From positions 1-64,000 of the IMG/VR virus record IMGVR_UViG_3300027896_000024: a stretch of DNA of 64,000 nucleotides. One strand, 5' to 3'. Both the position numbers and the translations under genes were made by a program. Position 1 is the first letter of the stretch, and every line of letters begins with the position of its first letter. This DNA is from a virus. The notes below the pieces were generated by a model that saw nothing but the letters and a program-made list of their open reading frames with translations, did no database searches and was not told the DNA's origin. Positions 20,740-30,890 of the stretch are shown here, piece by piece.

Positions 20740-20768
20740 TTGACAAGTATCTATATTTATTCCATAAT
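20740..20768 (+). promoter_or_regulatory. Sigma70-type early promoter
   Basis: TTGACA-17 nt-CATAAT. Confidence 0.8.
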
Positions 20769-20774
20769 ATAGGC

Positions 20775-21418
20775 GAGGTTAAGGATATGAGAACGAGAAC
20801 AAGCAAAAGGGAAACAAACCAAAGGCCAGAGGGGACAAGAAACCCGTCCTCGACCGGCGCGGCTTTCCCGGAGGTGGGGTTCTCGTCGAGCTTGAGCAGC
20901 CATCGCACCCTAGTTTTCTAGGCGCAGGTGGCACGGCGATCGATGATCCTAATTCGGGCTTTTGAGACTCCAAGCCGGGGCGACACGGTGAACCCGGAAG
21001 GAACAAATCGGAGAAAGCGGCTAGGTCGGCCTTAAGACTTTCACCTAAAGAAATCAGGCGAGTAGGGGAAAAGAGAGACGGGGAGACCCGGAGCATCGCG
21101 AAATCCTTTTCCAGCAAAAAGCCGGGTGAATAAAGGATCCGAGCAAAGCGAATCTGAGAGACGGCCAAATGACCCAGTGAGGGGAGGTCGTAAACCAGAT
21201 GAGTCGAGCGGAGTTCCTGGAAGGGGTAACGTCCCTAATTAGAGCGTGGGTACCTGAAAAATTCTTTCCCGTTTTGGTGGTCCGGTGGAAGGGATAAAAT
21301 CTAAGGTTAGCTAATTAGCAAAAGCGATAGACTCCGACCGCAAGTGCAGAGTTCCCGGCTATGCGGACGCCAAGCGAAAGCTCGGTAGGTTTTCTCTCAA
21401 ATCTCCTGTCGAGTTTTA
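20775..21418 (+). ncRNA. Candidate large structured ncRNA (about 650 nt)
   Basis: No convincing ORF over 650 nt in an otherwise dense genome; many hairpins; long-range pairings; bounded by the promoter and ribozyme 1. Confidence 0.5.
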
Positions 21419-21479
21419 GCAGAGGGCAATCAGGTTGTGAGACCTGGTTGTAATGCACGGTTAGGTCCCAAGTCCTAAC
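21419..21479 (+). ncRNA. Twister ribozyme copy 1 (permuted; predicted cut 21451/21452)
   Basis: GCA GAGGG CAATCAGGT-loop-ACCTGGTTG TAA TGC AC; P4 GTTAGG TCCCAAGT CCTAAC. Confidence 0.85.
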
Positions 21480-21498
21480 ATCAAAAGGAGAGAACAAC

Positions 21499-21672
21499 AT
21501 GAAAAACAAAACATGGCCAAACGAAAAAGACGTTTGCTATGATTGCGGAAGCAACATTCCAGGACATCATACTCCGTCATGCGATTTTGCGGAACCTGAT
21601 GACAAGCGCGATTTACCTGAGCAGCCTGGTACTCAATGGTGGACACGTGAAGTACCTGCGGAGTTGAAATAG
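21499..21672 (+). CDS. 57-aa Cys/His protein (absent from the ORF track)
   Basis: AAGGAGAG RBS; MKNKTWPNEKDVCYDCGSNIPGHHTPSC...; TAG overlaps ribozyme 2. Confidence 0.7.
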   Translation: MKNKTWPNEKDVCYDCGSNIPGHHTPSCDFAEPDDKRDLPEQPGTQWWTREVPAELK

Positions 21673-21736
21673 CAGAGGGCCGGCGTAAGCCGGTAATGCA
21701 CTTGCCGGGGGCACCGGCAATCGGTCCCAAGTCCGA
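21672..21736 (+). ncRNA. Twister ribozyme copy 2, with P3 (cut 21694/21695)
   Basis: P1 CCGGC-GTAA-GCCGG; P3 TTGCCGG/CCGGCAA; P4 TCGG TCCCAAGT CCGA. Confidence 0.85.
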
Positions 21737-21782
21737 ACAAGCACAGGGAACAAAACAACACAAAAAGAAAGAGAGAAATCAA

Positions 21783-22157
21783 ATGACGACTTCGAAAAAT
21801 ACGACCACTGCAACCGCAACTGCAACCGCTCCTGAAACCACGGCCCCGGCAGCAGCTCCAAAGGCTCCGACCCAGGCCAAACCGGTCGCCACCAAGAAAG
21901 CGGCCGTCAAGAAGGTCTTTATCTTCGTCGCGGTGGAACCGGACCTGTACCGGCTCACAATCGGATCGAACGCGGACTCGTCCAAGATTCGTAAGCTGCG
22001 TAATCACAACGCCAAGGAGATCAAGCAGGCTGTTGAGAACGCTTCGAACTTCGCGGGCCGGCCGCCCAAGCCGATCACGTTGAAGAAAGCGGATCTGAGC
22101 AAGTTCGGTCCCAAGGCCGCGCCGTTCACGGGTTTGAAGGCTTTCCGGATTGCGTAG
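21783..22157 (+). CDS. Basic Ala/Thr/Lys-rich protein
   Basis: MTTSKNTTTATATATAP...; A-rich leader after ribozyme 2. Confidence 0.65.
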   Translation: MTTSKNTTTATATATAPETTAPAAAPKAPTQAKPVATKKAAVKKVFIFVAVEPDLYRLTIGSNADSSKIRKLRNHNAKEIKQAVENASNFAGRPPKPITLKKADLSKFGPKAAPFTGLKAFRIA

Positions 22158-22162
22158 TTCCT

Positions 22163-22219
22163 GCAGAGGGGGTCGGCTTCGGCCGACCTAATGCACATGC
22201 TGGGTCCCAAGTCCCAGCA
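22163..22219 (+). ncRNA. Twister ribozyme copy 3 (cut 22189/22190)
   Basis: P1 GGTCGGC-TTCG-GCCGACC; P4 TGCTGGG TCCCAAGT CCCAGCA. Confidence 0.87.
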
Positions 22220-22239
22220 CTTCAAAAAGGAGAGACAAC

Positions 22240-22380
22240 ATGAAGAAGTTCTTTATTTGGTTATTTCTGATGTGGGCCGTACTTCACTTCGGAGCCAAGT
22301 GGGGCAAGGAAAACCAGGCGAAGGTGGAACAGCAGATTCACGAGTCAGGAATATTCCAGGTTGCGAATATCAACAAATAG
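22240..22380 (+). CDS. 46-aa membrane/secreted peptide (absent from the ORF track)
   Basis: AAGGAGAG RBS; MKKFFIWLFLMWAVLHFGAKWGKE...; TAG overlaps ribozyme 4. Confidence 0.7.
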   Translation: MKKFFIWLFLMWAVLHFGAKWGKENQAKVEQQIHESGIFQVANINK

Positions 22381-22437
22381 CAGAGGGCCAGGGTTCACGT
22401 CCCTGGTAATGCGGTAGGTCGGTCCCAAGCCCCGACC
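22380..22437 (+). ncRNA. Twister ribozyme copy 4 (cut 22407/22408)
   Basis: P1 CCAGGG/CCCTGG; P4 GGTCGG TCCCAAGCC CCGACC; T2 GGU/GCC. Confidence 0.82.
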
Positions 22438-22518
22438 ACAACGAATCATTCATTCCACAACACAACAAAACGGCCCAGGGCAAGGTAGGGCTGGAAAACC
22501 ACAAAAGGAGAGACAACA

Positions 22519-22983
22519 ATGACCGAGATCAAAACAAACAAAGGCACGTTTGAACTACCGGCCGGTGTTACCTTATCGGATTTAAAATATCCGTCTTGGA
22601 AAAGTTCCAAGCGGTTTGATTATTCCGAGGTTACCAAGCTGGGCCTGGATCATTCGGATTTGGAGTTAGATTTCTGGTACGTAAATTCAATTGGCTGGTG
22701 CCTTCCGACTTTACTTATTCACAGGGCCGGACGGAGATCAGCACCGGGAACAACGGACAGAACGTATGCGGTTGGTGTAAACGGAAATCATTACCGCATC
22801 GGCCATGGACCACACGTTCAGGCTGAGGTTAAGGTGTACGTCAACAAGGCAAATTTGGATCGCCTTCGAAAGTACATCGACCTTCGGAAGTCGGGTGCGG
22901 TACACGCCAACGAAACCCGGGATCGCATTTCAACACGGCGTATGAACACTATGAATCGTCGGAGCAGCTTATTTGGATTTTAG
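22519..22983 (+). CDS. Hypothetical early protein
   Basis: AAGGAGAG RBS; 154 aa; between ribozymes 4 and 5. Confidence 0.75.
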   Translation: MTEIKTNKGTFELPAGVTLSDLKYPSWKSSKRFDYSEVTKLGLDHSDLELDFWYVNSIGWCLPTLLIHRAGRRSAPGTTDRTYAVGVNGNHYRIGHGPHVQAEVKVYVNKANLDRLRKYIDLRKSGAVHANETRDRISTRRMNTMNRRSSLFGF

Positions 22984-23048
22984 CAGAGGGGGGCCGAAAG
23001 GCCCTAATGCCCACCGGATATAGGATCCGGTCAGGTCCCAAGGCCTGA
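22983..23048 (+). ncRNA. Twister ribozyme copy 5, with P3 (cut 23005/23006)
   Basis: P1 GGGCC-GAAA-GGCCC; P3 ACCGGAT/ATCCGGT; P4 loop TCCCAAGG with compensatory T2 CC/GG. Confidence 0.87.
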
Positions 23049-23086
23049 GGGTATTACCAAAAAAGAGAGATTAAGGAGACAATACA

Positions 23087-23806
23087 ATGAGCAAAAAGCA
23101 GAATAACGGCACTGATGATGAATCATTGGTATTCGCTGGCAAGGAGCTCACGTTGGAAGATGAGATGAACATTCTCAAGGGCGGGACAGTAGGCCTGGAA
23201 CAGTTCCTCGAAAACTTCCAGTTTCTGATTTTCGTCCTGGACGAGTCGGGTTCGATGCAAGACCGGCTGCCGAGTGGAGATACTCCGAAGCGTGAGGTTC
23301 AGAAGCGGATTATCAAACGGTATGTGGACGAGAAGATCGGACGCAAGGCCGGCACGATGAAGATCGGTGTTGTCAGCTTCGATGATGAAGCGTCCGTTTG
23401 GCTCCAGGGTTCGTCGGATCCGGTTGCAATCAAGGCCGCGGCGGACCAGTGCAGGGGCGGTGGCGGTACGCACCTCGGGCGCGGAATTCTCAAGGGTCTT
23501 TCATTACTCCACCGGATGAAAGATTATATTCCCCGTCTCGTTCTTACGTCGGATGGTGAGGCACATGATCCGGCTCAGGCAATCGCCGGAGCGGAAGCGG
23601 CCAAGGCCAAGGGCGTCGTAATCGACACGGTGTACATTGGCCCTGGTGGGGGCGGTGACGTATATGCGGATAATGCGGCTGATCTTATGCGGAGAATCGC
23701 TGAGATCACCGGCGGCGTGTTCGAGCGCGTAAACAATCAGTCGGAATTCGAAACCAAGTTTTTCGATGTGATCAAGCGCCCGTTGCTTGCAACCAGTTTG
23801 AAGTAG
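23087..23806 (+). CDS. von Willebrand factor A (VWA) domain protein
   Basis: MIDAS DESGSM, GGGT, LTSDGE, IAEITGG. Confidence 0.88.
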   Translation: MSKKQNNGTDDESLVFAGKELTLEDEMNILKGGTVGLEQFLENFQFLIFVLDESGSMQDRLPSGDTPKREVQKRIIKRYVDEKIGRKAGTMKIGVVSFDDEASVWLQGSSDPVAIKAAADQCRGGGGTHLGRGILKGLSLLHRMKDYIPRLVLTSDGEAHDPAQAIAGAEAAKAKGVVIDTVYIGPGGGGDVYADNAADLMRRIAEITGGVFERVNNQSEFETKFFDVIKRPLLATSLK

Positions 23807-23811
23807 TCCTC

Positions 23812-23864
23812 GCAGAGGGGGGCCGGTAACGGCCCTAATGCACGGGCCGGTCCCAAGTCCGGTC
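23812..23864 (+). ncRNA. Twister ribozyme copy 6 (cut 23836/23837)
   Basis: P1 GGGCCG-GTAA-CGGCCC; P4 GGCCGG TCCCAAGT CCGGTC. Confidence 0.87.
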
Positions 23865-23897
23865 GTCATTACAAACCACAAAAAGGAGAGAACGATC

Positions 23898-24599
23898 ATG
23901 GTATATGCTGATGATTTTCCAGAGCAACAAAAACAACAGGAAGCGCGGAAAGCGGCTATTAGGGCTCACAGGGCCGAGATGGACGCTAAGATCGAACAGT
24001 GCACGTTGGCCTTAGTCGTCGCGTTGGAAAACTATGGCCACAAGGTAGAACGGCATGGGCACAAGCAGGACGACAAAGTGATCCTCGGCGACATCTATCA
24101 TATTGACGGGGTGTACTTTTGGGATCTGCAGTTCTACGAACAAGGGCTTTACGCTCCTGGTGGATATCTCAGGGGTGCCGGAAATGGTAAACTGGCATTG
24201 CATTATCAGGATCCGAATTCAGTGCTTCAAAGGCGCGTTATCATTCGTGAGAAGAAAAGCGGTTTTGATTACAACACAATCGCCGCTACGTTGATAGCCT
24301 TGGCAGCCCCGTTAATACCGGCTGCTAAGGAACGGTTGGAGCGGGAAGCGAAGCAGGCCGAGGCCAACGCCAAAGCGGAACAGATCCGGGACATGGCGAG
24401 CGCTTTACAGCAACAGTTTCGGAGCAAAACGTTGACGAACTTGAGTATTCAATATCAGAACTGGTGCGGCAAATTTGAGGTTTCGTTCAATACGGAGACC
24501 TTGGAAGAGGCGCAAGCAATTCTGAGCCGGTTGGTTCCGAATAAAACGGAATCGCCCGACGACGCAATCGAAGAAGCGAGGCGTAGAATACACGGTTAG
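23898..24599 (+). CDS. Hypothetical early protein
   Basis: AAGGAGAG RBS before ATG 23898. Confidence 0.7.
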   Translation: MVYADDFPEQQKQQEARKAAIRAHRAEMDAKIEQCTLALVVALENYGHKVERHGHKQDDKVILGDIYHIDGVYFWDLQFYEQGLYAPGGYLRGAGNGKLALHYQDPNSVLQRRVIIREKKSGFDYNTIAATLIALAAPLIPAAKERLEREAKQAEANAKAEQIRDMASALQQQFRSKTLTNLSIQYQNWCGKFEVSFNTETLEEAQAILSRLVPNKTESPDDAIEEARRRIHG

Positions 24600-24673
24600 C
24601 AGAGGGGGGCGAGCTAACACAGTCGCCCTAATGCACTAGTACATTCTTTAAGTACTAATGGTCCCAAGTCCAT
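24599..24673 (+). ncRNA. Twister ribozyme copy 7, with P3 (cut 24629/24630)
   Basis: P1 GGGCGA/TCGCCC; P3 TAGTAC/GTACTA; P4 ATGG TCCCAAGT CCAT. Confidence 0.83.
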
Positions 24674-24701
24674 AAACAAAAAAGAGAGAAGAGGAGATAA
24701 C

Positions 24702-25466
24702 ATGAACCCAAGGAAGCTGTTGGCACAGCTCAGGCGGGTGTATTCACAGTTTACCAAAATGGCTAAGCAGCCGATCGAGGACAGGAACAAGTTGCTCGTA
24801 TCTGCGGTGGCCATAATGGATGCTGTAGTGCGCCTGGCAATTGTTCAATACAAATCGCAACTGCCTCAGAACGCGGCCAAGCTTTTCGATATCGCGGGAA
24901 AGTGCAGAGCTAGGGCGATGAGTACAACATTCAACGAAGAGAAGGATTTATCACTTCGGATAGCACTTCTGAAAATGGAACAAATGATTCCCATGTTAAG
25001 CCCGCCGGCGTTTCAGCTCTATATTGACAAGTTCAATCTTAGGGCGTCGGCACATAAAGAGGGCAAGTCGGCCAAAGGTCCCAAAGCACCACGGGCACCA
25101 AGAACACCGGCGAGCGCCCAGCCTCAAAATCAGTATGGTGTACGGCGGAAGTTTTCTCCGGTGCCTCAAATAGTACCGGTTGGTTCGCCGCTGATTATCA
25201 ACATTCTATTTGCTAATCTAAAGACCCCGTTCAGGGCGTCTTCGGCAAAGGCAAAGGCATTTCGTTTCTGGTTCGAGGACTTCCGTACTAAGGAAGAGGT
25301 CGCTCAATACCTGAACCAGGTTACCAACGGGAAGGGCAAATCGCTAGTCTGGTTACTCTGGAACAAGAGGAACGGCGGCGACGAGTCGATGCACTGGTCG
25401 TTTATTCAAAAGGGCAACAAGAGCAAGCTGGTTGTATGCGATCCGACCAAGCTTCCGAAACCATAG
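24702..25466 (+). CDS. Basic protein with a C-terminal domain shared with 34305-35120
   Basis: TPFRASSAKAKAF...GGDESMHW vs TPFRAGSAKEKAF...GGDKSMSW. Confidence 0.7.
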   Translation: MNPRKLLAQLRRVYSQFTKMAKQPIEDRNKLLVSAVAIMDAVVRLAIVQYKSQLPQNAAKLFDIAGKCRARAMSTTFNEEKDLSLRIALLKMEQMIPMLSPPAFQLYIDKFNLRASAHKEGKSAKGPKAPRAPRTPASAQPQNQYGVRRKFSPVPQIVPVGSPLIINILFANLKTPFRASSAKAKAFRFWFEDFRTKEEVAQYLNQVTNGKGKSLVWLLWNKRNGGDESMHWSFIQKGNKSKLVVCDPTKLPKP

Positions 25467-25529
25467 CAGAGGGGCAGCAGGCCTGAGGAACCTGCTGCTA
25501 ATGCACATTCCGGGTCCCAAGTCCCGGAA
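25466..25529 (+). ncRNA. Twister ribozyme copy 8 (cut 25499/25500)
   Basis: P1 GCAGCAGG/CCTGCTGC; P4 TTCCGGG TCCCAAGT CCCGGAA. Confidence 0.87.
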
Positions 25530-25549
25530 CACAAAAAGGAGAGAGCAAC

Positions 25550-25768
25550 ATGGCAGAGATTTTGAAGTGCGAGAAATGCGGCCAAAAGAATAGGGTCGAT
25601 ATATCGCGTTTAGCTCAGTCTATGTGTGCTAAGTGCGGTTGTCCTTTATTTATTCGGCCAGCACCCGGAAGAGATCTTATTGGAGATCTGGCCAACAAGC
25701 TGGAAGCGGCAGCTAAGAATGAGAGGTTCCGTAGAACGCAGGAATACATTTATAGAAGTCGTAACTAA
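25550..25768 (+). CDS. Zinc-ribbon protein resembling the thioredoxin-2 N-terminal finger
   Basis: CEKCGQKNRV...CAKCG. Confidence 0.65.
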   Translation: MAEILKCEKCGQKNRVDISRLAQSMCAKCGCPLFIRPAPGRDLIGDLANKLEAAAKNERFRRTQEYIYRSRN

Positions 25769-25821
25769 GCAGAGGGGGGCCGAAAGGCCCTAATGCACGG
25801 CTTCGGTCCCAAGTCCGAAGC
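25769..25821 (+). ncRNA. Twister ribozyme copy 9 (cut 25791/25792)
   Basis: P1 GGGCC-GAAA-GGCCC; P4 GCTTCGG TCCCAAGT CCGAAGC. Confidence 0.87.
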
Positions 25822-25844
25822 GTCATTACAAAAAGGGAGACAAC

Positions 25845-26318
25845 ATGGAACCAAGACAGTTCGAGGCACAATGCTACAAAACACTGGAAGAGTACGATCG
25901 TACTTATTTCGGCAGCGTAGGCAGCGTGATCGGGATTCGCCTTACTCGGTTTGCTAGAGATTACGAAGCACTCCAGCAGTTCGAGGCAATAACGCGAAAA
26001 CGATTCGGGTTGGTTATGGTGACGCTGGGTATGTACGATTCGGAGTCTCGCCTGGTGTATCTTAATTACCACGTCAGGCACCTGGTAAATAAAGGCTACT
26101 TTACCACGGAGTTGCGGGCGGTCTTATACCATGAGTTGATTCATGCGGTCTTGTGCAATGCGCATCAGCCTATCAGGTTAGGGCTGTACCGCTGTTATTC
26201 ACAAGGCGGCCACGGACCTGCTTTTCAAAAGCTCTGGAACAGTAATAATGAGCTTCGAGAGGTAAACGTGCAGCCGTTATGTTCCGCGGTTTGGGACAGA
26301 ATGGAGAAGCGGCTATGA
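25845..26318 (+). CDS. SprT-like zinc metalloprotease
   Basis: VLYHELIHA and GHGPAF motifs. Confidence 0.8.
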   Translation: MEPRQFEAQCYKTLEEYDRTYFGSVGSVIGIRLTRFARDYEALQQFEAITRKRFGLVMVTLGMYDSESRLVYLNYHVRHLVNKGYFTTELRAVLYHELIHAVLCNAHQPIRLGLYRCYSQGGHGPAFQKLWNSNNELREVNVQPLCSAVWDRMEKRL

Positions 26319-26896
26319 ACATCCAGGCGTTTTTCGATCAGCTTAAACTCGAACTCTCATTACTTAAACACACGGTGGATGATGAGTTCGAGATGTTTGA
26401 TAATAGGCCGCTTCGGTTAACGGTCGCAGGTTCCTTGGGATCAGATTCCCAGGCAATCGCATTCGGTTTCTACGGAGATCGAAAAGTGCTTCGGGGTGCT
26501 ATGAGCCCCGAGGCTATTGCTTCCGCGATCCATATGTATCTGCAAACCAGGAACGTAGGTACCGGGGCAAAACCACAACCGAACAGAGACATTCTCAATA
26601 CCAAACGGCCGTACGATCAGTACAAACAGTCACAGCAACAAAGACCTCATACAAAACCGATCAAGCCTCAGGAACCTAAACGTCGAGTTTGGGCAATGGG
26701 GCCGTCACAGTTTCAGGGTACACCGCTAGACCAGTTAAGGTTGGCGGACTTCGATGGTAAGGTTCAAACAGTCACAGTCAAGGGTGAGATCAAGACGGCA
26801 TCAGACCTGGTGTTGGCGGACTTGCCCGAAAAACAACAGCTTATGCTCAAGATACTTGAGCGGGCACTCAATAGGTTGAACAAACAGTTATCCTAA
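26315..26896 (+). CDS. Hypothetical protein
   Basis: ATGA overlap with the SprT-like gene. Confidence 0.65.
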   Translation: MNIQAFFDQLKLELSLLKHTVDDEFEMFDNRPLRLTVAGSLGSDSQAIAFGFYGDRKVLRGAMSPEAIASAIHMYLQTRNVGTGAKPQPNRDILNTKRPYDQYKQSQQQRPHTKPIKPQEPKRRVWAMGPSQFQGTPLDQLRLADFDGKVQTVTVKGEIKTASDLVLADLPEKQQLMLKILERALNRLNKQLS

Positions 26897-26911
26897 AAAG
26901 GAGAGAACAAC

Positions 26912-27313
26912 ATGGCTAAGCGAGTTTTGACTTGCGGTAATGAGGATTGCAAGCAAAAGAATAACGTCGATATGGACCGCCTGAAGGCGGCCTACTGCGG
27001 GAAGTGCTCGTTTCCGATGTACATGGCCGTCGAACTCCAAGTTCGTGAGGACGAGGAGGAGGAATCGGTCGATGATCTGATTGACGAAATGGCCGGTGCG
27101 GAAGAGGACGATGAACCGGAAGAGGACGAGGAAGATGATTCGGAAGAGGAAGCCGAGGAAATCTTTCTCTGCCCGCTTTGTGGACAGACTGAGGTACCTG
27201 AGGAAGGGCGGGCCTGCTCCAAGTGCCTAGCCGCTCAGAAAAAAGCGGCCAAGGGCAAGGCAGGGGCGAAAAAACCCGCATCCAAGGGCAAGACCAAACC
27301 GAAAGTAAACTAG
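26912..27313 (+). CDS. Zinc-ribbon protein with acidic linker and basic tail
   Basis: N-terminal finger similar to 25550-25768; second CxxC...CxxC. Confidence 0.7.
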   Translation: MAKRVLTCGNEDCKQKNNVDMDRLKAAYCGKCSFPMYMAVELQVREDEEEESVDDLIDEMAGAEEDDEPEEDEEDDSEEEAEEIFLCPLCGQTEVPEEGRACSKCLAAQKKAAKGKAGAKKPASKGKTKPKVN

Positions 27314-27373
27314 CAGAGGGGACCGGGCCAGCACGGCCGGTCTAATGCGCAGTCCCGGTCCCAAGTCCGGGGC
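27313..27373 (+). ncRNA. Twister ribozyme copy 10 (cut 27343/27344)
   Basis: P1 GACCGG/CCGGTC; P4 GTCCCGG TCCCAAGT CCGGGGC; T2 GC/GU. Confidence 0.85.
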
Positions 27374-27420
27374 GCATTGTTAGTACTAACATTCATTCTC
27401 ACAAAAGGGAGAAAACGAAC

Positions 27421-27609
27421 ATGGCAATCAGTGCTGAAATCAAGGGCAAGAATTTGGTAGTGACGATTCCGGTTAACGATCCGCCTGAGCCTTCCGGTTC
27501 CGGCAAGTCGTTGGTGGTTGCGTCTTCGCACGGCAATCAGGAGACGACCTGCAAGGTGAACGGGAAGAACCTGGTGATCGGCCTGAACGCTTACATCCGC
27601 AACAAGTAG
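27421..27609 (+). CDS. Conserved small protein (SGSGKSLVVASSHGN family)
   Basis: 62 aa; S.SGKS.VVAS..GN...LN.Y pattern. Confidence 0.7.
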   Translation: MAISAEIKGKNLVVTIPVNDPPEPSGSGKSLVVASSHGNQETTCKVNGKNLVIGLNAYIRNK

Positions 27610-27668
27610 GCAGAGGGGGGCGGGCTAGTATAGCCGCCCTAATGCACAAGCCGGTCCCAAGTTCGGCT
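27610..27668 (+). ncRNA. Twister ribozyme copy 11 (cut 27640/27641)
   Basis: P1 GGGCGG..CTA/TAGCCGCCC; P4 AGCCGG TCCCAAGT TCGGCT. Confidence 0.85.
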
Positions 27669-27688
27669 ATTCAAAAAGGAGAGAACCT

Positions 27689-27955
27689 ATGGTACACGTT
27701 CCAAGGCAGTTGACTACGGAAGAGGCTATCATCGAGGCGTACGAGCTTACCTGGGATCAAATAGCCCCAGATATTCTAGGTCGCGATGAGACCGCCAGCG
27801 TCGATCGGGACACCGTCATGGATTGCTGCGCGGATCACGTTCGTATTCACGGCGCTATGTCCAAGGAAGTAGAGGCAGCGTACAAGCTGCTATCCTGGGA
27901 AGAAAAGAAGCGGTTGCTCAGGAAGGCGTTCCCGCACAAGACGTACGGATACTAG
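27689..27955 (+). CDS. Hypothetical early protein
   Basis: AAGGAGAG RBS. Confidence 0.7.
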   Translation: MVHVPRQLTTEEAIIEAYELTWDQIAPDILGRDETASVDRDTVMDCCADHVRIHGAMSKEVEAAYKLLSWEEKKRLLRKAFPHKTYGY

Positions 27956-27965
27956 GGAGGTTTAT

Positions 27966-28166
27966 ATGGCAGAGATCTCCAGATGGGCAAACACTCAAGC
28001 TACCGCAGAGGTTGCTTGTCCCCGTTGTGGTATGCAGGCCGGTGTTGAGTGCAGAACTCCAAAGATGCGTAGGTTATTCACAATTCACACCGAACGAGGG
28101 AATGCCTATTTTGCCAAGATAGGTCGTGACGAATGGCTTCGTAGGTACTCAATATCAAAACACTAG
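27966..28166 (+). CDS. Phage zinc-finger protein
   Basis: CPRCGMQAGVEC...HTER. Confidence 0.7.
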   Translation: MAEISRWANTQATAEVACPRCGMQAGVECRTPKMRRLFTIHTERGNAYFAKIGRDEWLRRYSISKH

Positions 28167-28220
28167 CAGAGGGCGGCCGGCAACGGCCGTAATGCACAGC
28201 TCGGGTCCCAAGTCCTGAGT
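28166..28220 (+). ncRNA. Twister ribozyme copy 12 (cut 28190/28191)
   Basis: P1 CGGCCG-GCAA-CGGCCG; P4 GCTCGGG TCCCAAGT CCTGAGT. Confidence 0.87.
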
Positions 28221-28240
28221 ATAAAAAAGGAGAGAACAAC

Positions 28241-28684
28241 ATGGATACAATCATCGAAGATAAACATTCGTTGGCACATCTTGAACAGGTCGTGCGTAAA
28301 TTGTTCGAGAGGTTGGATGTTTCCGAACTTCGTCGTGGTCCGCATCCGATACCAACAGGGATAGGCGAAATCAAGATTGACGATGAAACGCTGGACGTAT
28401 TCGGCGGCCTGTGGGCGGTTGCGTGCGAGATCACAGTAACCCGAAAGTATTTGGGTGGCCGGGGCCGCAAAGCAAAAGTTCCTGGATTTGTGGTCGGCGT
28501 CGTAGTACATCATCATAATTATCCGCATGAACCGGATGATTACGAACCTGTTGAAACGGGCCAGTTCGAGTCACCTTACAAAGCCGCAGAGGCTCTGGCA
28601 TTGTTGTATTACCAAGACCGTATCAATAGTGCGATGGAGGACATCAGCATGGCAGAGGTTGCGGAGCAGTTCCACGAAGATTAG
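28241..28684 (+). CDS. Hypothetical early protein
   Basis: AAGGAGAG RBS, 147 aa. Confidence 0.7.
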   Translation: MDTIIEDKHSLAHLEQVVRKLFERLDVSELRRGPHPIPTGIGEIKIDDETLDVFGGLWAVACEITVTRKYLGGRGRKAKVPGFVVGVVVHHHNYPHEPDDYEPVETGQFESPYKAAEALALLYYQDRINSAMEDISMAEVAEQFHED

Positions 28685-28734
28685 CAGAGGGGGGCCGCAA
28701 GGCCCTAATGCACGAGCTGGTCCCAAGTCCAGCT
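28684..28734 (+). ncRNA. Twister ribozyme copy 13 (cut 28706/28707)
   Basis: P1 GGGCC-GCAA-GGCCC; P4 AGCTGG TCCCAAGT CCAGCT. Confidence 0.87.
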
Positions 28735-28763
28735 AGGCAGATCACAAAAAGGAGAGAACAACG

Positions 28764-29300
28764 ATGGCTGATAAAGAGGTAGAGGCGACATATACCGAGG
28801 AGCCGTCTAAGTATCCTGTATTCGTGCAGGAGCTTATGGATCGCTTCAAGGCCGTTGAGCGCAAGCTAACGGAAAACAAGTATCAAATGGACGCAGAGTT
28901 AAAGCGTACCCAGGAGCGCCTGGAGGCCAGTTATACCAAGCAGCGGGATTTGGACGGGCAGAAGTTAATCGTTCATTTCCTGGAAGTGTTGGATAATCTG
29001 GATTGGGCATTATCACATGCTACTGAATCGGCCGACAGCTTTCATTCGGGTGTACGTCTAGTGGCGGATCTGTTTCGGAAGAAACTCCAGCAACTAGGCG
29101 TAGTACTCGTACCGTTGAAGGACAAGCCTTACGATCCGGAATTCGCGCAAGCTATCTTTGCACAAGAGGTAGATAAGCCCGAGTTACACGGCATCGTGCT
29201 TCAAGAACACGTCACTTGCTACGCGATTGATGCGACTATCATCCGTCCTGGTCAAGTGGTCGTAGGCAAGAAGCGGGAGGTGTCTAATGGTAGCGGTTAA
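28764..29300 (+). CDS. grpE: GrpE-like nucleotide exchange factor
   Basis: N-terminal coiled coil, LEVLDNLDWAL, GVRLV, YDPEFAQAI, Y...IIRPGQVVV. Confidence 0.8.
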   Translation: MADKEVEATYTEEPSKYPVFVQELMDRFKAVERKLTENKYQMDAELKRTQERLEASYTKQRDLDGQKLIVHFLEVLDNLDWALSHATESADSFHSGVRLVADLFRKKLQQLGVVLVPLKDKPYDPEFAQAIFAQEVDKPELHGIVLQEHVTCYAIDATIIRPGQVVVGKKREVSNGSG

Positions 29301-29538
29301 GTGCTGTAAGTGTTTTCGGAATACCAACAAGTTCCGGTGTTGTTCCTGCGGTCACAGTATTTGTACTTCATGTAAAGAGCAGACTCGAAAATTACCGGTT
29401 CGCAAGTTGGTGAGTGACGAGGACTTGTTATTCCTGTTGGAAGTATTTGAACGGTCTGGCCAGTCATTATCCTATCGGGCCAAGGTGTACCGAGTAGAGG
29501 CTATGCATCGCGGTCTTATCAAGAAGGAGGCCAAGTGA
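29287..29538 (+). CDS. Cys-rich zinc-finger protein
   Basis: CCKC...CCSCGHSICTSC. Confidence 0.6.
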   Translation: MVAVKCCKCFRNTNKFRCCSCGHSICTSCKEQTRKLPVRKLVSDEDLLFLLEVFERSGQSLSYRAKVYRVEAMHRGLIKKEAK

Positions 29539-29738
29539 AAAGGAAGAGGTTGATGGTCGTTGTACAACCGGTAACAAATCTCCCGGGCTTGTATACCTGG
29601 TCAATACAACGGGCTGGCCGGGTGATTGCGATATACCCGGAGACGTACAAAACAAAGGACTCGGCTATTCGTTATGCTGAGCCCTTTGCTCAGGAAATCG
29701 GAGCAACATTCGCTACCGAAAAGGAGGTACAGGGTTAG
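29535..29738 (+). CDS. Small protein, YegP/DUF1508-like pattern
   Basis: YTWSI...GRVIA..PETYKTKDSAIR. Confidence 0.5.
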   Translation: MKRKRLMVVVQPVTNLPGLYTWSIQRAGRVIAIYPETYKTKDSAIRYAEPFAQEIGATFATEKEVQG

Positions 29739-29796
29739 CAGAGGGGACCGGTCTGAGGGCCGGTCTAATGCGCATGGTCGGTCCCAAGTCCGACCA
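29738..29796 (+). ncRNA. Twister ribozyme copy 14 (cut 29766/29767)
   Basis: P1 GACCGGTC-TGAG-GGCCGGTC; P4 TGGTCGG TCCCAAGT CCGACCA. Confidence 0.87.
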
Positions 29797-29808
29797 AGGG
29801 AGGCACCT

Positions 29809-30477
29809 ATGAGGCGTATTTCTCGTGAGGGGTGGCGCCGGCGTAAGATCGCTGAGTACTACCAACGGCGGGACGATGAACGAATACAAAAAAGGGAGGA
29901 CAACATGATTACACCAGAATATGTTGAATGGGAAAAGGCTCAGGAGCGGGCAGCTTTTGAGTCTAAGATGCGCAGGGACGAGGCTTTGGAAAAGCAGTCC
30001 CAAGTGCAGCAGAGGAAGACAATGGCGGATACGAGCAATCAGGATTCAGCCGTGCCGGCACAGCTCAAGGACTTGATGTTGATATTCGCTGGTAATGCAT
30101 ATTTCACAATTCGAAACAACACAACAGGCAATCGCTTCACGTTTCGCGTATCGGTTTCAAAACCGAATCCACAATTTCCGAACCCGGTTCACTTCGTTAG
30201 TGTACTCTGCGGGCCGGATAACCGTACGAACTATGCGTATATCGGGTTCGTCAGCAAAGCACTTCAATATCGGCACGCAGTCAAGTCAATCATCACGGAA
30301 CAAGCGGTATCTGTTCAAGCTTTCAAATGGTTACTGGCTAGGGTAGCTACTAAGCAGCCCTTGCCTCCCGAAGTGCAGATCTGGCACGAGGGTCGGTGTT
30401 GCCGATGTGGCCGAATGCTAACAGTTCCTGAGTCCATTGAGCACGGCCTAGGGCCGGAATGCTACGGGAGGATATGA
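29809..30477 (+). CDS. DUF6011-like protein (alternative start 29905)
   Basis: C-terminal GRCCRCGRMLTVPESIEHGLGPEC. Confidence 0.75.
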   Translation: MRRISREGWRRRKIAEYYQRRDDERIQKREDNMITPEYVEWEKAQERAAFESKMRRDEALEKQSQVQQRKTMADTSNQDSAVPAQLKDLMLIFAGNAYFTIRNNTTGNRFTFRVSVSKPNPQFPNPVHFVSVLCGPDNRTNYAYIGFVSKALQYRHAVKSIITEQAVSVQAFKWLLARVATKQPLPPEVQIWHEGRCCRCGRMLTVPESIEHGLGPECYGRI

Positions 30478-30707
30478 TGCGAGTTACTCAGATGGAACGC
30501 GCTGCGATTCTCCAGATGTTTGTACTCCCGGATGGTGTATCGTATCTCGGGGAGCAACCGGATCCGGCTGGCGGGTCGATATCACTTTATCACGATGTAG
30601 TCACAGGGTCGTCATTCATGGTTCACGAAGGCGAAAACATCGAGCAGGCGGTAAACAGAATCCGAGAATCATTTTTCCCGGAGGAATTCAAGGTTTGGGA
30701 AGCATAG
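30474..30707 (+). CDS. Hypothetical protein
   Basis: GGAGG RBS; ATGA overlap; TAG overlaps ribozyme 15. Confidence 0.6.
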   Translation: MMRVTQMERAAILQMFVLPDGVSYLGEQPDPAGGSISLYHDVVTGSSFMVHEGENIEQAVNRIRESFFPEEFKVWEA

Positions 30708-30803
30708 CAGAGGGGGTGGTTGCCTTTACAAAAGTAGGCATTAAATGGTAGGGCCTGATCCTATCAGCCACCTAATGCGGCAGTCCTGGTCCCAAGTCCC
30801 AGG
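30707..30803 (+). ncRNA. Twister ribozyme copy 15, with branched P1 extension (cut 30773/30774)
   Basis: P1 GGTGGT/GCCACC enclosing two hairpins; P4 CCTGG TCCCAAGTC CCAGG; T2 GGC/GUC. Confidence 0.8.
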
Positions 30804-30828: not shown

Positions 30829-30879
30829 GGCGGGCAACGGGTCTGGTGCGTTGCCAGATCCGACCCGCCCTTTTATTTT
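30829..30879 (+). terminator. Intrinsic terminator closing the ribozyme-punctuated unit
   Basis: GGCGGG..CGGGTCTGG/CCAGATCCG..CCCGCC stem then TTTTATTTT. Confidence 0.8.
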
Positions 30880-30890
30880 AGGAGTTCGCT

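Follow-up and report, generated by a model that had tools for sequence, protein, structure and literature searches.

Two short intergenic elements flank a small gene between positions 22,240 and 23,048 of the window, by which we mean the whole stretch of 64,000 nucleotides analysed here (positions 1 to 64,000 of the viral record IMGVR_UViG_3300027896_000024). A preliminary description, made from the letters alone, had proposed that these elements belong to a series of repeated RNA folds of the twister type, and that the nucleotides following a TAATGC motif covary with the 3′ end of a hairpin loop further downstream, as the two strands of the T2 pseudoknot would. The locus therefore raises two questions: what are these elements, and is the covariation the mark of selection on an RNA tertiary structure? 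Twister ribozymes occur as permutations named after the stem that bears the termini, P1, P3 or P5 (PMC5408937). In the solved structures, T2 is made by the dinucleotide located just after P2 (the 'conserved GC') and by two bases of the loop L4 that are bulged out, flanked by a U-A Hoogsteen pair and an extra G-C pair; it is stacked with P2 on one side and P3 on the other, and is regarded as the most critical long-range contact for the building of the active site (PMC5408937). The first position of its 5′ half is variable, since a published descriptor writes this half as 'NC' (PMC11662667).

An Rfam cmscan search of the whole window produced 15 matches to the Twister-P5 family (RF02684), all on the + strand:

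21418–30803, + strand: whole array of 15 twister-P5 copies (Rfam and our own parse)
21418, 21671, 22162, 22379, 22982, 23811, 24598, 25465, 25768, 27312, 27609, 28165, 28683, 29737 and 30706, + strand: starts of copies 1 to 15

Twelve copies scored between 43.5 and 56.2 bits, above the curated gathering cut-off of 37.6 bits. A permissive scan added three copies falling 0.1 to 0.9 bits short of it (copy 7, 37.5; copy 5, 37.1; copy 15, 36.7 bits), and these three are the bearers of large insertions in P3 or P1. The score of copy 15 falls just under the cut-off mainly because of a 58-nt insertion in P1 (30715–30772), whose two extra hairpins produce a three-way junction atop this stem. The order of the matches along the genome is that of the copy numbering used in the preliminary description, copies 4 and 5 being the two that span the stretch under study. 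No further Twister-P5 copy was found outside the array in the entire IMG/VR record (82,928 bases, rated 100% complete by CheckV). All 15 copies harbour GCAGAGGG, TAATGC, GGTCCCAAG and a closing C without variation, together with the core nucleotides named by the Rfam consensus and the U-A dinucleotide of the cut site. P1 is a loop-closed hairpin in every copy; the P1 and P4 sequences are almost wholly different from one copy to another, yet their pairing is preserved. Judged by these sequence features, the 15 intergenic elements are type-P5 twister ribozymes, a catalogued family.

We divided each copy into the 5′ strand of P2 followed by GAGGG, the P1 hairpin, UAA with the 3′ strand of P2, the bases that follow P2, and P4 with its loop L4. 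The resulting fold comprises P2 (three pairs), the closed P1 hairpin and the P4 hairpin, with L4 contacting the rest of the molecule twice. In T1, the CCC of L4 is matched to the GGG within the internal loop GAGGG (GGG/CCC in 15 of 15 window copies), and in T2 the last two or three bases of L4 pair with the two or three bases immediately 3′ of UAAUGC. Seven P1 loops are tetraloops of the GNRA or UUCG type, as had been pointed out for many copies: GAAA, GCAA or GUAA in copies 2, 5, 6, 9, 12 and 13, and UUCG in copy 3. The additional hairpin reported at the optional P3 position of copies 2, 5 and 7 was also recovered; 22 to 24 nt separate T2 from P4 in these copies, against 6 to 8 nt in the others, and this segment folds as a hairpin. 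In copies 4 and 5 the elements of the fold are placed as follows, the cut sites being predicted:

22379–22437, + strand: twister copy 4 (type P5), RF02684 score 46.2 bits
22380–22382 with 22410–22412, + strand: P2 of copy 4
22385–22387 with 22424–22426, + strand: T1 of copy 4
22388–22406, + strand: P1 hairpin of copy 4
between 22407 and 22408, + strand: predicted cut of copy 4
22423–22431, + strand: P4 loop L4 of copy 4, 9 nt
22413–22415, + strand: T2 5′ strand of copy 4, GGU, forming three pairs with GCC
22429–22431, + strand: T2 3′ strand of copy 4, GCC, at the 3′ end of L4
22982–23048, + strand: twister copy 5 (type P5, with optional P3), RF02684 score 37.1 bits, 0.5 under the cut-off
22983–22985 with 23008–23010, + strand: P2 of copy 5
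22988–22990 with 23037–23039, + strand: T1 of copy 5
22991–23004, + strand: P1 of copy 5, with a GAAA loop
between 23005 and 23006, + strand: predicted cut of copy 5
23013–23031, + strand: optional P3 hairpin of copy 5
23011–23012, + strand: T2 5′ strand of copy 5, CC, pairing with GG
23042–23043, + strand: T2 3′ strand of copy 5, GG, in L4

The 19-nt P3 hairpin of copy 5 is counted as an insertion in the RF02684 alignment; our own covariance model (R1) gave this copy 33.7 bits. The minimum free energy (MFE) fold of copy 4 consists of P2, P1 and P4 (z = −2.35), and that of copy 5 of P2, P1, P3 and P4 (z = −3.29).

It had also been suggested that the copies lack a P5 helix and represent an open permutation. 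Our flank analysis agrees with this view. For the 15 copies, the duplex between the 5′ and 3′ flanks of one copy had a mean energy of −2.81 kcal/mol, against −2.51 kcal/mol for flanks taken from different copies, and the mean number of adjacent contiguous flank pairs in the window was 1.6 within and 1.9 between copies. No P5 signal appeared either in 179 copies from other phages (−2.80 within versus −2.70 between copies). The structure line of the Rfam Twister-P5 model is itself devoid of P5 pairs.

The 15 copies delimit 14 segments of one to three small genes each. Almost every spacer longer than 15 nt within the array holds one ribozyme, and the junctions free of ribozymes are those where open reading frames overlap or are separated by no more than 15 nt (26279/26318, 26896/26912, 27955/27966, 29287/29300, 29535/29538 and 30459/30477). 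Few of the encoded proteins resemble known families. No PHROGs match was obtained for 18 of the 20 operon proteins, and the gene located between copies 4 and 5 had neither a PHROG nor a Pfam hit. Pfam matches among the operon proteins were limited to three:

22519–22983, + strand: gene of unknown function (154 aa) separating copies 4 and 5, with a TAG stop whose G serves as the first P2 base of copy 5
23087–23806: von Willebrand factor A (VWA) domain protein (Pfam)
25845–26318: SprT-like metalloprotease, a weak match just under the cut-off (Pfam)
29809–30477: DUF6011, C-terminal (Pfam)

The operon is flanked by a QueC-like gene and a replication module, and the rest of the window codes for a primase, helicases, a clamp loader, a DNA polymerase, a terminase and a portal protein. 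No close cultured relative was found, the portal protein being at most 34% identical to those of Dinoroseobacter phages and reaching no higher value with any other cultured phage. Among the sequencing runs listed, one DNA run, from a freshwater metagenome that is probably the source, carries this sequence, and no RNA run does. The best sigma-70-like promoter site of the region lies at 20740 (TTGACA, 17 nt, CATAAT; 11 of 12 matches), and no promoter-like site of comparable strength was detected inside the array. About 650 nt without a convincing open reading frame separate this site from ribozyme 1, and the interval 20740–21418 matched no Rfam family at E ≤ 1. After copy 15, at about 30829–30880, a long imperfect GC-rich hairpin is followed by TTTTATTTT, a U-tract. 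From its sequence, this arrangement resembles a terminator at the end of the ribozyme operon; a simple terminator scan did not pick it up. Taken together, we consider it very probable that copies 4 and 5 belong to a set of 15 functional-looking type-P5 twisters, which would cleave the transcript in the spacers of a single operon (about 20 small genes, all on the same strand and mostly unknown) within the complete 83-kb genome of an uncultured freshwater tailed phage.

The same gene content could nevertheless be read in another way. The ribozymes are separated by unrelated ORFan genes, a composition consistent with cassettes, and P2 is one pair below the published consensus. The twister fold might then have been kept mainly for a role other than mRNA cutting, as an insulator or stabiliser, a protein-binding site or a recombination joint for cassette exchange, with weak or incidental cleavage. 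This is improbable in our opinion. The Rfam core nucleotides and the U-A cut site are invariant throughout the array; T1 and T2 covary as well (see below); they are of importance solely to the catalytic fold and would be superfluous in a simple hairpin insulator. As for P2, a structural paper quoted in PMC5408937 suggests that changing the length of this stem might disturb the active site, whereas imperfections in P2 were well tolerated in a large assay (PMC11662667). Hence a short P2 is probably compatible with activity, and we retain cleaving ribozymes as the preferred reading.

We then turned to T2 itself. The pair sets given in the preliminary description were all found again: AC/GU in copies 1, 2, 3, 6, 7, 8, 9, 11, 12 and 13, CC/GG in copy 5, GC/GU in copies 10 and 14, GGU/GCC in copy 4 and GGC/GUC in copy 15. 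The loop longer by one nucleotide is likewise restricted to copies 4 and 15, where L4 has 9 nt against 8 nt in the other 13. T2 is thus fully paired in 15 of 15 copies by means of five pair sets. When the 3′ partners were shuffled among the copies, complete pairing was reached in 144 of 200,000 trials. In copy 5, the A-U pair of the majority form is replaced by C-G, with both sides altered. Copies 10 and 14 have most of P1 in common, and their GC/GU set probably reflects a single event. The number of independent T2 changes in the window is therefore about three, two of them (copies 4 and 5) being two-sided.

A covariation test including homologous phages had been proposed at the outset. A pattern in which only GCAGAGGG, TAATGC and GGTCCCAAG were fixed matched more than 115 IMG/VR stretches. 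Five of the phage genomes so recovered contain 9, 13, 14, 8 and 20 Twister-P5 copies, in same-strand clusters. With a covariance model built from nine regular copies of the window, we aligned 79 copies from six phage genomes; the alignment of copies 2 and 7 stopped at P3, leaving gaps at their T2 and T1 pairs in the 79-copy count, and these two copies were parsed separately. In this alignment, 97.8% of the cells formed standard pairs, against 72.3% after shuffling (0 of 500 shuffles as high) and 31–40% when the partners were slid by one to three columns. The variable T2 pair was A-U in 56 copies of the alignment, G-C in 12, G-U in 5, C-G in 1 and something else in 2. The second pair was C-G in 71 copies. 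The five exceptions, copy 4 and copies in which the canonical extra G persists, seem to reflect the register. Two-sided changes affected six of six P1 pairs, four of four P4 pairs and two of three P2 pairs, with 95.7%, 99.0% and 100% of the cells paired, respectively. P2 is either GCA/UGC or GUG/CAC across the 79 copies; as an example, both of its strands are changed from GCA/UGC to GUG/CAC at three places in L119 (genome G003), 9265–9319, 10632–10685 and 13319–13372. T1 cells are 100% paired in the 79 copies, with the pair types G-C/A-U/C-G and G-C/A-U/U-A, and related phages display matched partner swaps (GAGAG with UCUCAA, GAAGG with UCCUAA, GACGG with UCCGAA, GAGUG with UCACAA). In other copies from G003 and in copies from G005, T1 is changed from GGG/CCC to GAG/CUC or AGG/CCU. 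The earlier view that these elements are a maintained RNA tertiary structure, and not a DNA repeat or a terminator, is borne out by the matches to the Twister-P5 model and by the covariation of the helices and of both pseudoknots over the 79 copies.

A descriptor search of IMG/VR in which T2 was free to be unpaired returned 194 unique hits, of which 184 remained after a filter on the P2 sequence; L031, and L047 on the + strand, were false positives of this descriptor. T2 was paired in one of three registers in 183 of the 184 copies. GG/CC, CC/GG and CU/GG forms occur in lineages with unrelated P1 and P4. CC/GG arises independently again at L014 and L047, and a three-pair T2 with an enlarged L4 arises independently at L105, L026, L027 and L071, and once, at L092, in a C-G version. 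We conclude that the T2 covariation is genuine and far above chance. Since T2 has to be paired for the active site to be built, selection retains the pairing while the sequence drifts, and this is the covariation that we see.

Could chance and the shared ancestry of recent duplicates produce the same picture, without any selection on pairing? The handful of independent T2 changes in the window, the resemblance of copies 10 and 14 to a duplication, and the fact that shuffle tests ignore relatedness would all speak for it. However, P1 and P4 are nearly all different and still paired, so that the copies must be old. Independent lineages elsewhere show GC/GC, CC/GG, GG/CC and a C-G third pair, and slid registers, which preserve relatedness, nonetheless fall to the low pairing given above. 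We therefore regard this explanation as very unlikely, and selection on T2 pairing as the cause of the pattern.

Copy 5 deserves a separate comment. Its CC/GG T2 makes L4 self-complementary (23036–23043), and the MFE fold lengthens P4 at the cost of T1 and T2; in terms of predicted folding, copy 5 might tend to misfold, or it might rely on its own P3 hairpin. It is hardly credible that the covarying bases generally form another local helix, either an extension of P4 or a competing hairpin, as the pairing of the T2 GG with CC inside L4 in this MFE fold would have it, because this pairing is seen in copy 5 alone, nested folds leave the T2 bases unpaired in the other copies, the partners lie 13 to 30 nt apart across P4 and sometimes P3, and their geometry is exactly that of T2 in solved twister structures (PMC5408937).

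The window copies depart from the published fold in P2, which has three pairs instead of four (PMC5408937), position 1 of the model (A, T, C or G) being left without a partner. In three Rfam alignments of window hits its counterpart, position 36, is missing, and our parse gives the same result for 13 of the 15 copies. In copies 4 and 15 position 36 is kept as a G and pairs with the C added to L4, giving the three-pair T2. A register with a four-pair P2 was considered for the majority copies and rejected, since T2 would then oppose CA, CG or CU to GU and be unpaired. Position 1 has another assignment: in 10 of the 14 copies that are preceded by a gene, it supplies the A of that gene's TAG stop codon. 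In the remaining four, the stop ends right at P2 (two copies) or 5 nt upstream (two copies), so that a stop codon overlaps or abuts 12 of 14. With position 1 usually serving as the A of a stop codon, the canonical fourth P2 pair is lost.

The 184 IMG/VR copies could be sorted in the same manner: 139 combine a short P2 with a two-pair T2, 7 combine a short P2 with a three-pair T2 and an L4 longer by one nucleotide, 37 are canonical and 1 fits none of these registers. A short P2 is therefore present in 146 of 184 copies, which makes it a common natural subtype. The canonical copies almost all have a C at position 1 paired with G36, and GC/GC as T2. The insertion in L4 is found only where position 36 is present without a position-1 partner (all 7 copies of this kind have it, and none of the 37 canonical ones), and the third T2 pair is G-C in six cases and C-G in one (L092). 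From these sequences, it looks as if position 36 switches partner, from P2 to T2, thereby holding the stack of P2 and T2 at six pairs. A three-pair T2 is otherwise uncommon, the equivalent pseudoknot being always of 2 nt in the assayed type-P1 twisters (PMC11662667). Within the IMG/VR set, 79% of the short-P2 copies lie at most 5 nt from a stop codon, compared with 27% of the canonical ones. Canonical and short-P2 copies are combined in a single genome in the array of G004, in which three four-pair-P2 copies (L120, 1486–1544, 3547–3605 and 5481–5539) have a C in place of the U before the cleaved A (CAAUGC).

One might go further and see the twisters of phage arrays as a distinct subtype embedded in stop codons, with a short P2 and with position 36 either deleted or reused in T2, where it restores the six-pair stack, and with cleavage placed under the control of upstream-gene translation. 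Our data support the structural part of this proposal. The gating is pure speculation: a ribosome terminating at the stop codon would mask P2, T1 and the beginning of P1, and cleavage would for this reason depend on translation. As a whole, we put the proposal forward only tentatively and consider it doubtful.

Coming back to cleaving ribozymes, a plausible course of events can be outlined. T2 stacks on P2 and helps to form the active site in solved twister structures (PMC5408937). By analogy with these structures, T1 and T2 would dock L4 onto the junction, and the RNA would be cut at the U-A step of UAAUGC, after P1. Transcription would start at the promoter-like site at 20740 and run through to the hairpin and U-tract at 30829–30880, and co-transcriptional cutting at the 15 sites would yield mRNAs of one or a few genes. 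The upstream fragments would retain their stop codons and have as their 3′ ends the GC-rich P1 hairpin bearing a 2′,3′-cyclic phosphate; each downstream product would begin with a 5′-OH, AAUGC and the P4 hairpin, 10 to 80 nt ahead of a GGAG-type ribosome-binding site. Hairpins ending in a cyclic phosphate are poor substrates for 3′ exonucleases, as are 5′-OH ends for RNases that depend on a 5′ monophosphate. Both types of ends should be expected to slow host exonucleases and to insulate the expression of each gene.

T2 and the permutation open at P5 are already published features of twisters, and the T2 covariation re-derives what has been known since 2014. What our analysis provides is evidence that these elements are real, selected ribozymes, which gives a base to the picture of a self-processing phage polycistron. 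A single genome moreover offers a natural series of T2 variants (A-U, G-U, C-G and G-C, with two or three pairs) for compensatory mutagenesis. We would add, more modestly, the prevalence of a three-pair P2 in phage arrays, the partner switch of position 36, and the tie between this architecture and overlap with stop codons. The purpose of bacterial and phage twisters was called open in a 2019 review (PMC6765202), and arrays like the present one are suited to tests of their biological role.

How do these ribozymes compare with known systems? The closest is the type-P5 twister of RF02684, a class due to Roth et al. (2014) as presented in PMC5408937. The array copies share with it the 5′ strand of P2, GAGGG, a closed P1, UAAUGC, the T2 dinucleotide, an optional P3 and a P4 with the loop UCCCAAGNC; the invariant core is common to both, and in both the ends are open at the P5 position. 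The array copies differ from it in that their T2 is mostly A-U plus C-G and not the 'conserved GC', in that two of them have a three-pair T2 with a 9-nt L4, and in their P2 of three pairs, not four. With the crystallised twisters (O. sativa and env22; PMC5408937) and the 2,600 type-P1 twisters assayed by CHiTA (PMC11662667), they share the double pseudoknot T1 and T2, the formation of T2 from two L4 bases between the U-A Hoogsteen and closing G-C pairs, a variable first T2 base and the tolerance of G-U wobbles. Those ribozymes are however of type P1 or P1/P3, and T2 (called PK1 there) has two nucleotides in all that were tested, whereas P1 is closed in the phage array, the ends are located at P5 and a three-pair T2 occurs.

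At the level of genome organization, the nearest parallel is provided by the hammerhead clusters of prophages, which flank single genes or short blocks and have been proposed to process long phage transcripts into gene-length mRNAs; three of these clusters were cleaved in vitro and one in vivo (Perreault et al. 2011, PMC3088659). In both cases, multiple self-cleaving ribozymes lie near one another around genes of phage origin. The hammerhead clusters belong to another ribozyme class and count about three ribozymes each, as compared with 15 here, most of which start at a stop codon. Work from the Breaker laboratory, as cited in PMC4604425, associates twister and hammerhead genes with phage genes and with each other. 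Our literature searches for large twister arrays in phage operons yielded general statements only. Synthetic insulators of the RiboJ type follow a related principle, a self-cleaving ribozyme placed before the ribosome-binding site creating a defined hairpin 5′ end that is independent of the upstream sequence. These insulators are engineered, derived from hammerheads and used singly, whereas the phage array is natural, made of twisters and repeated along an operon.
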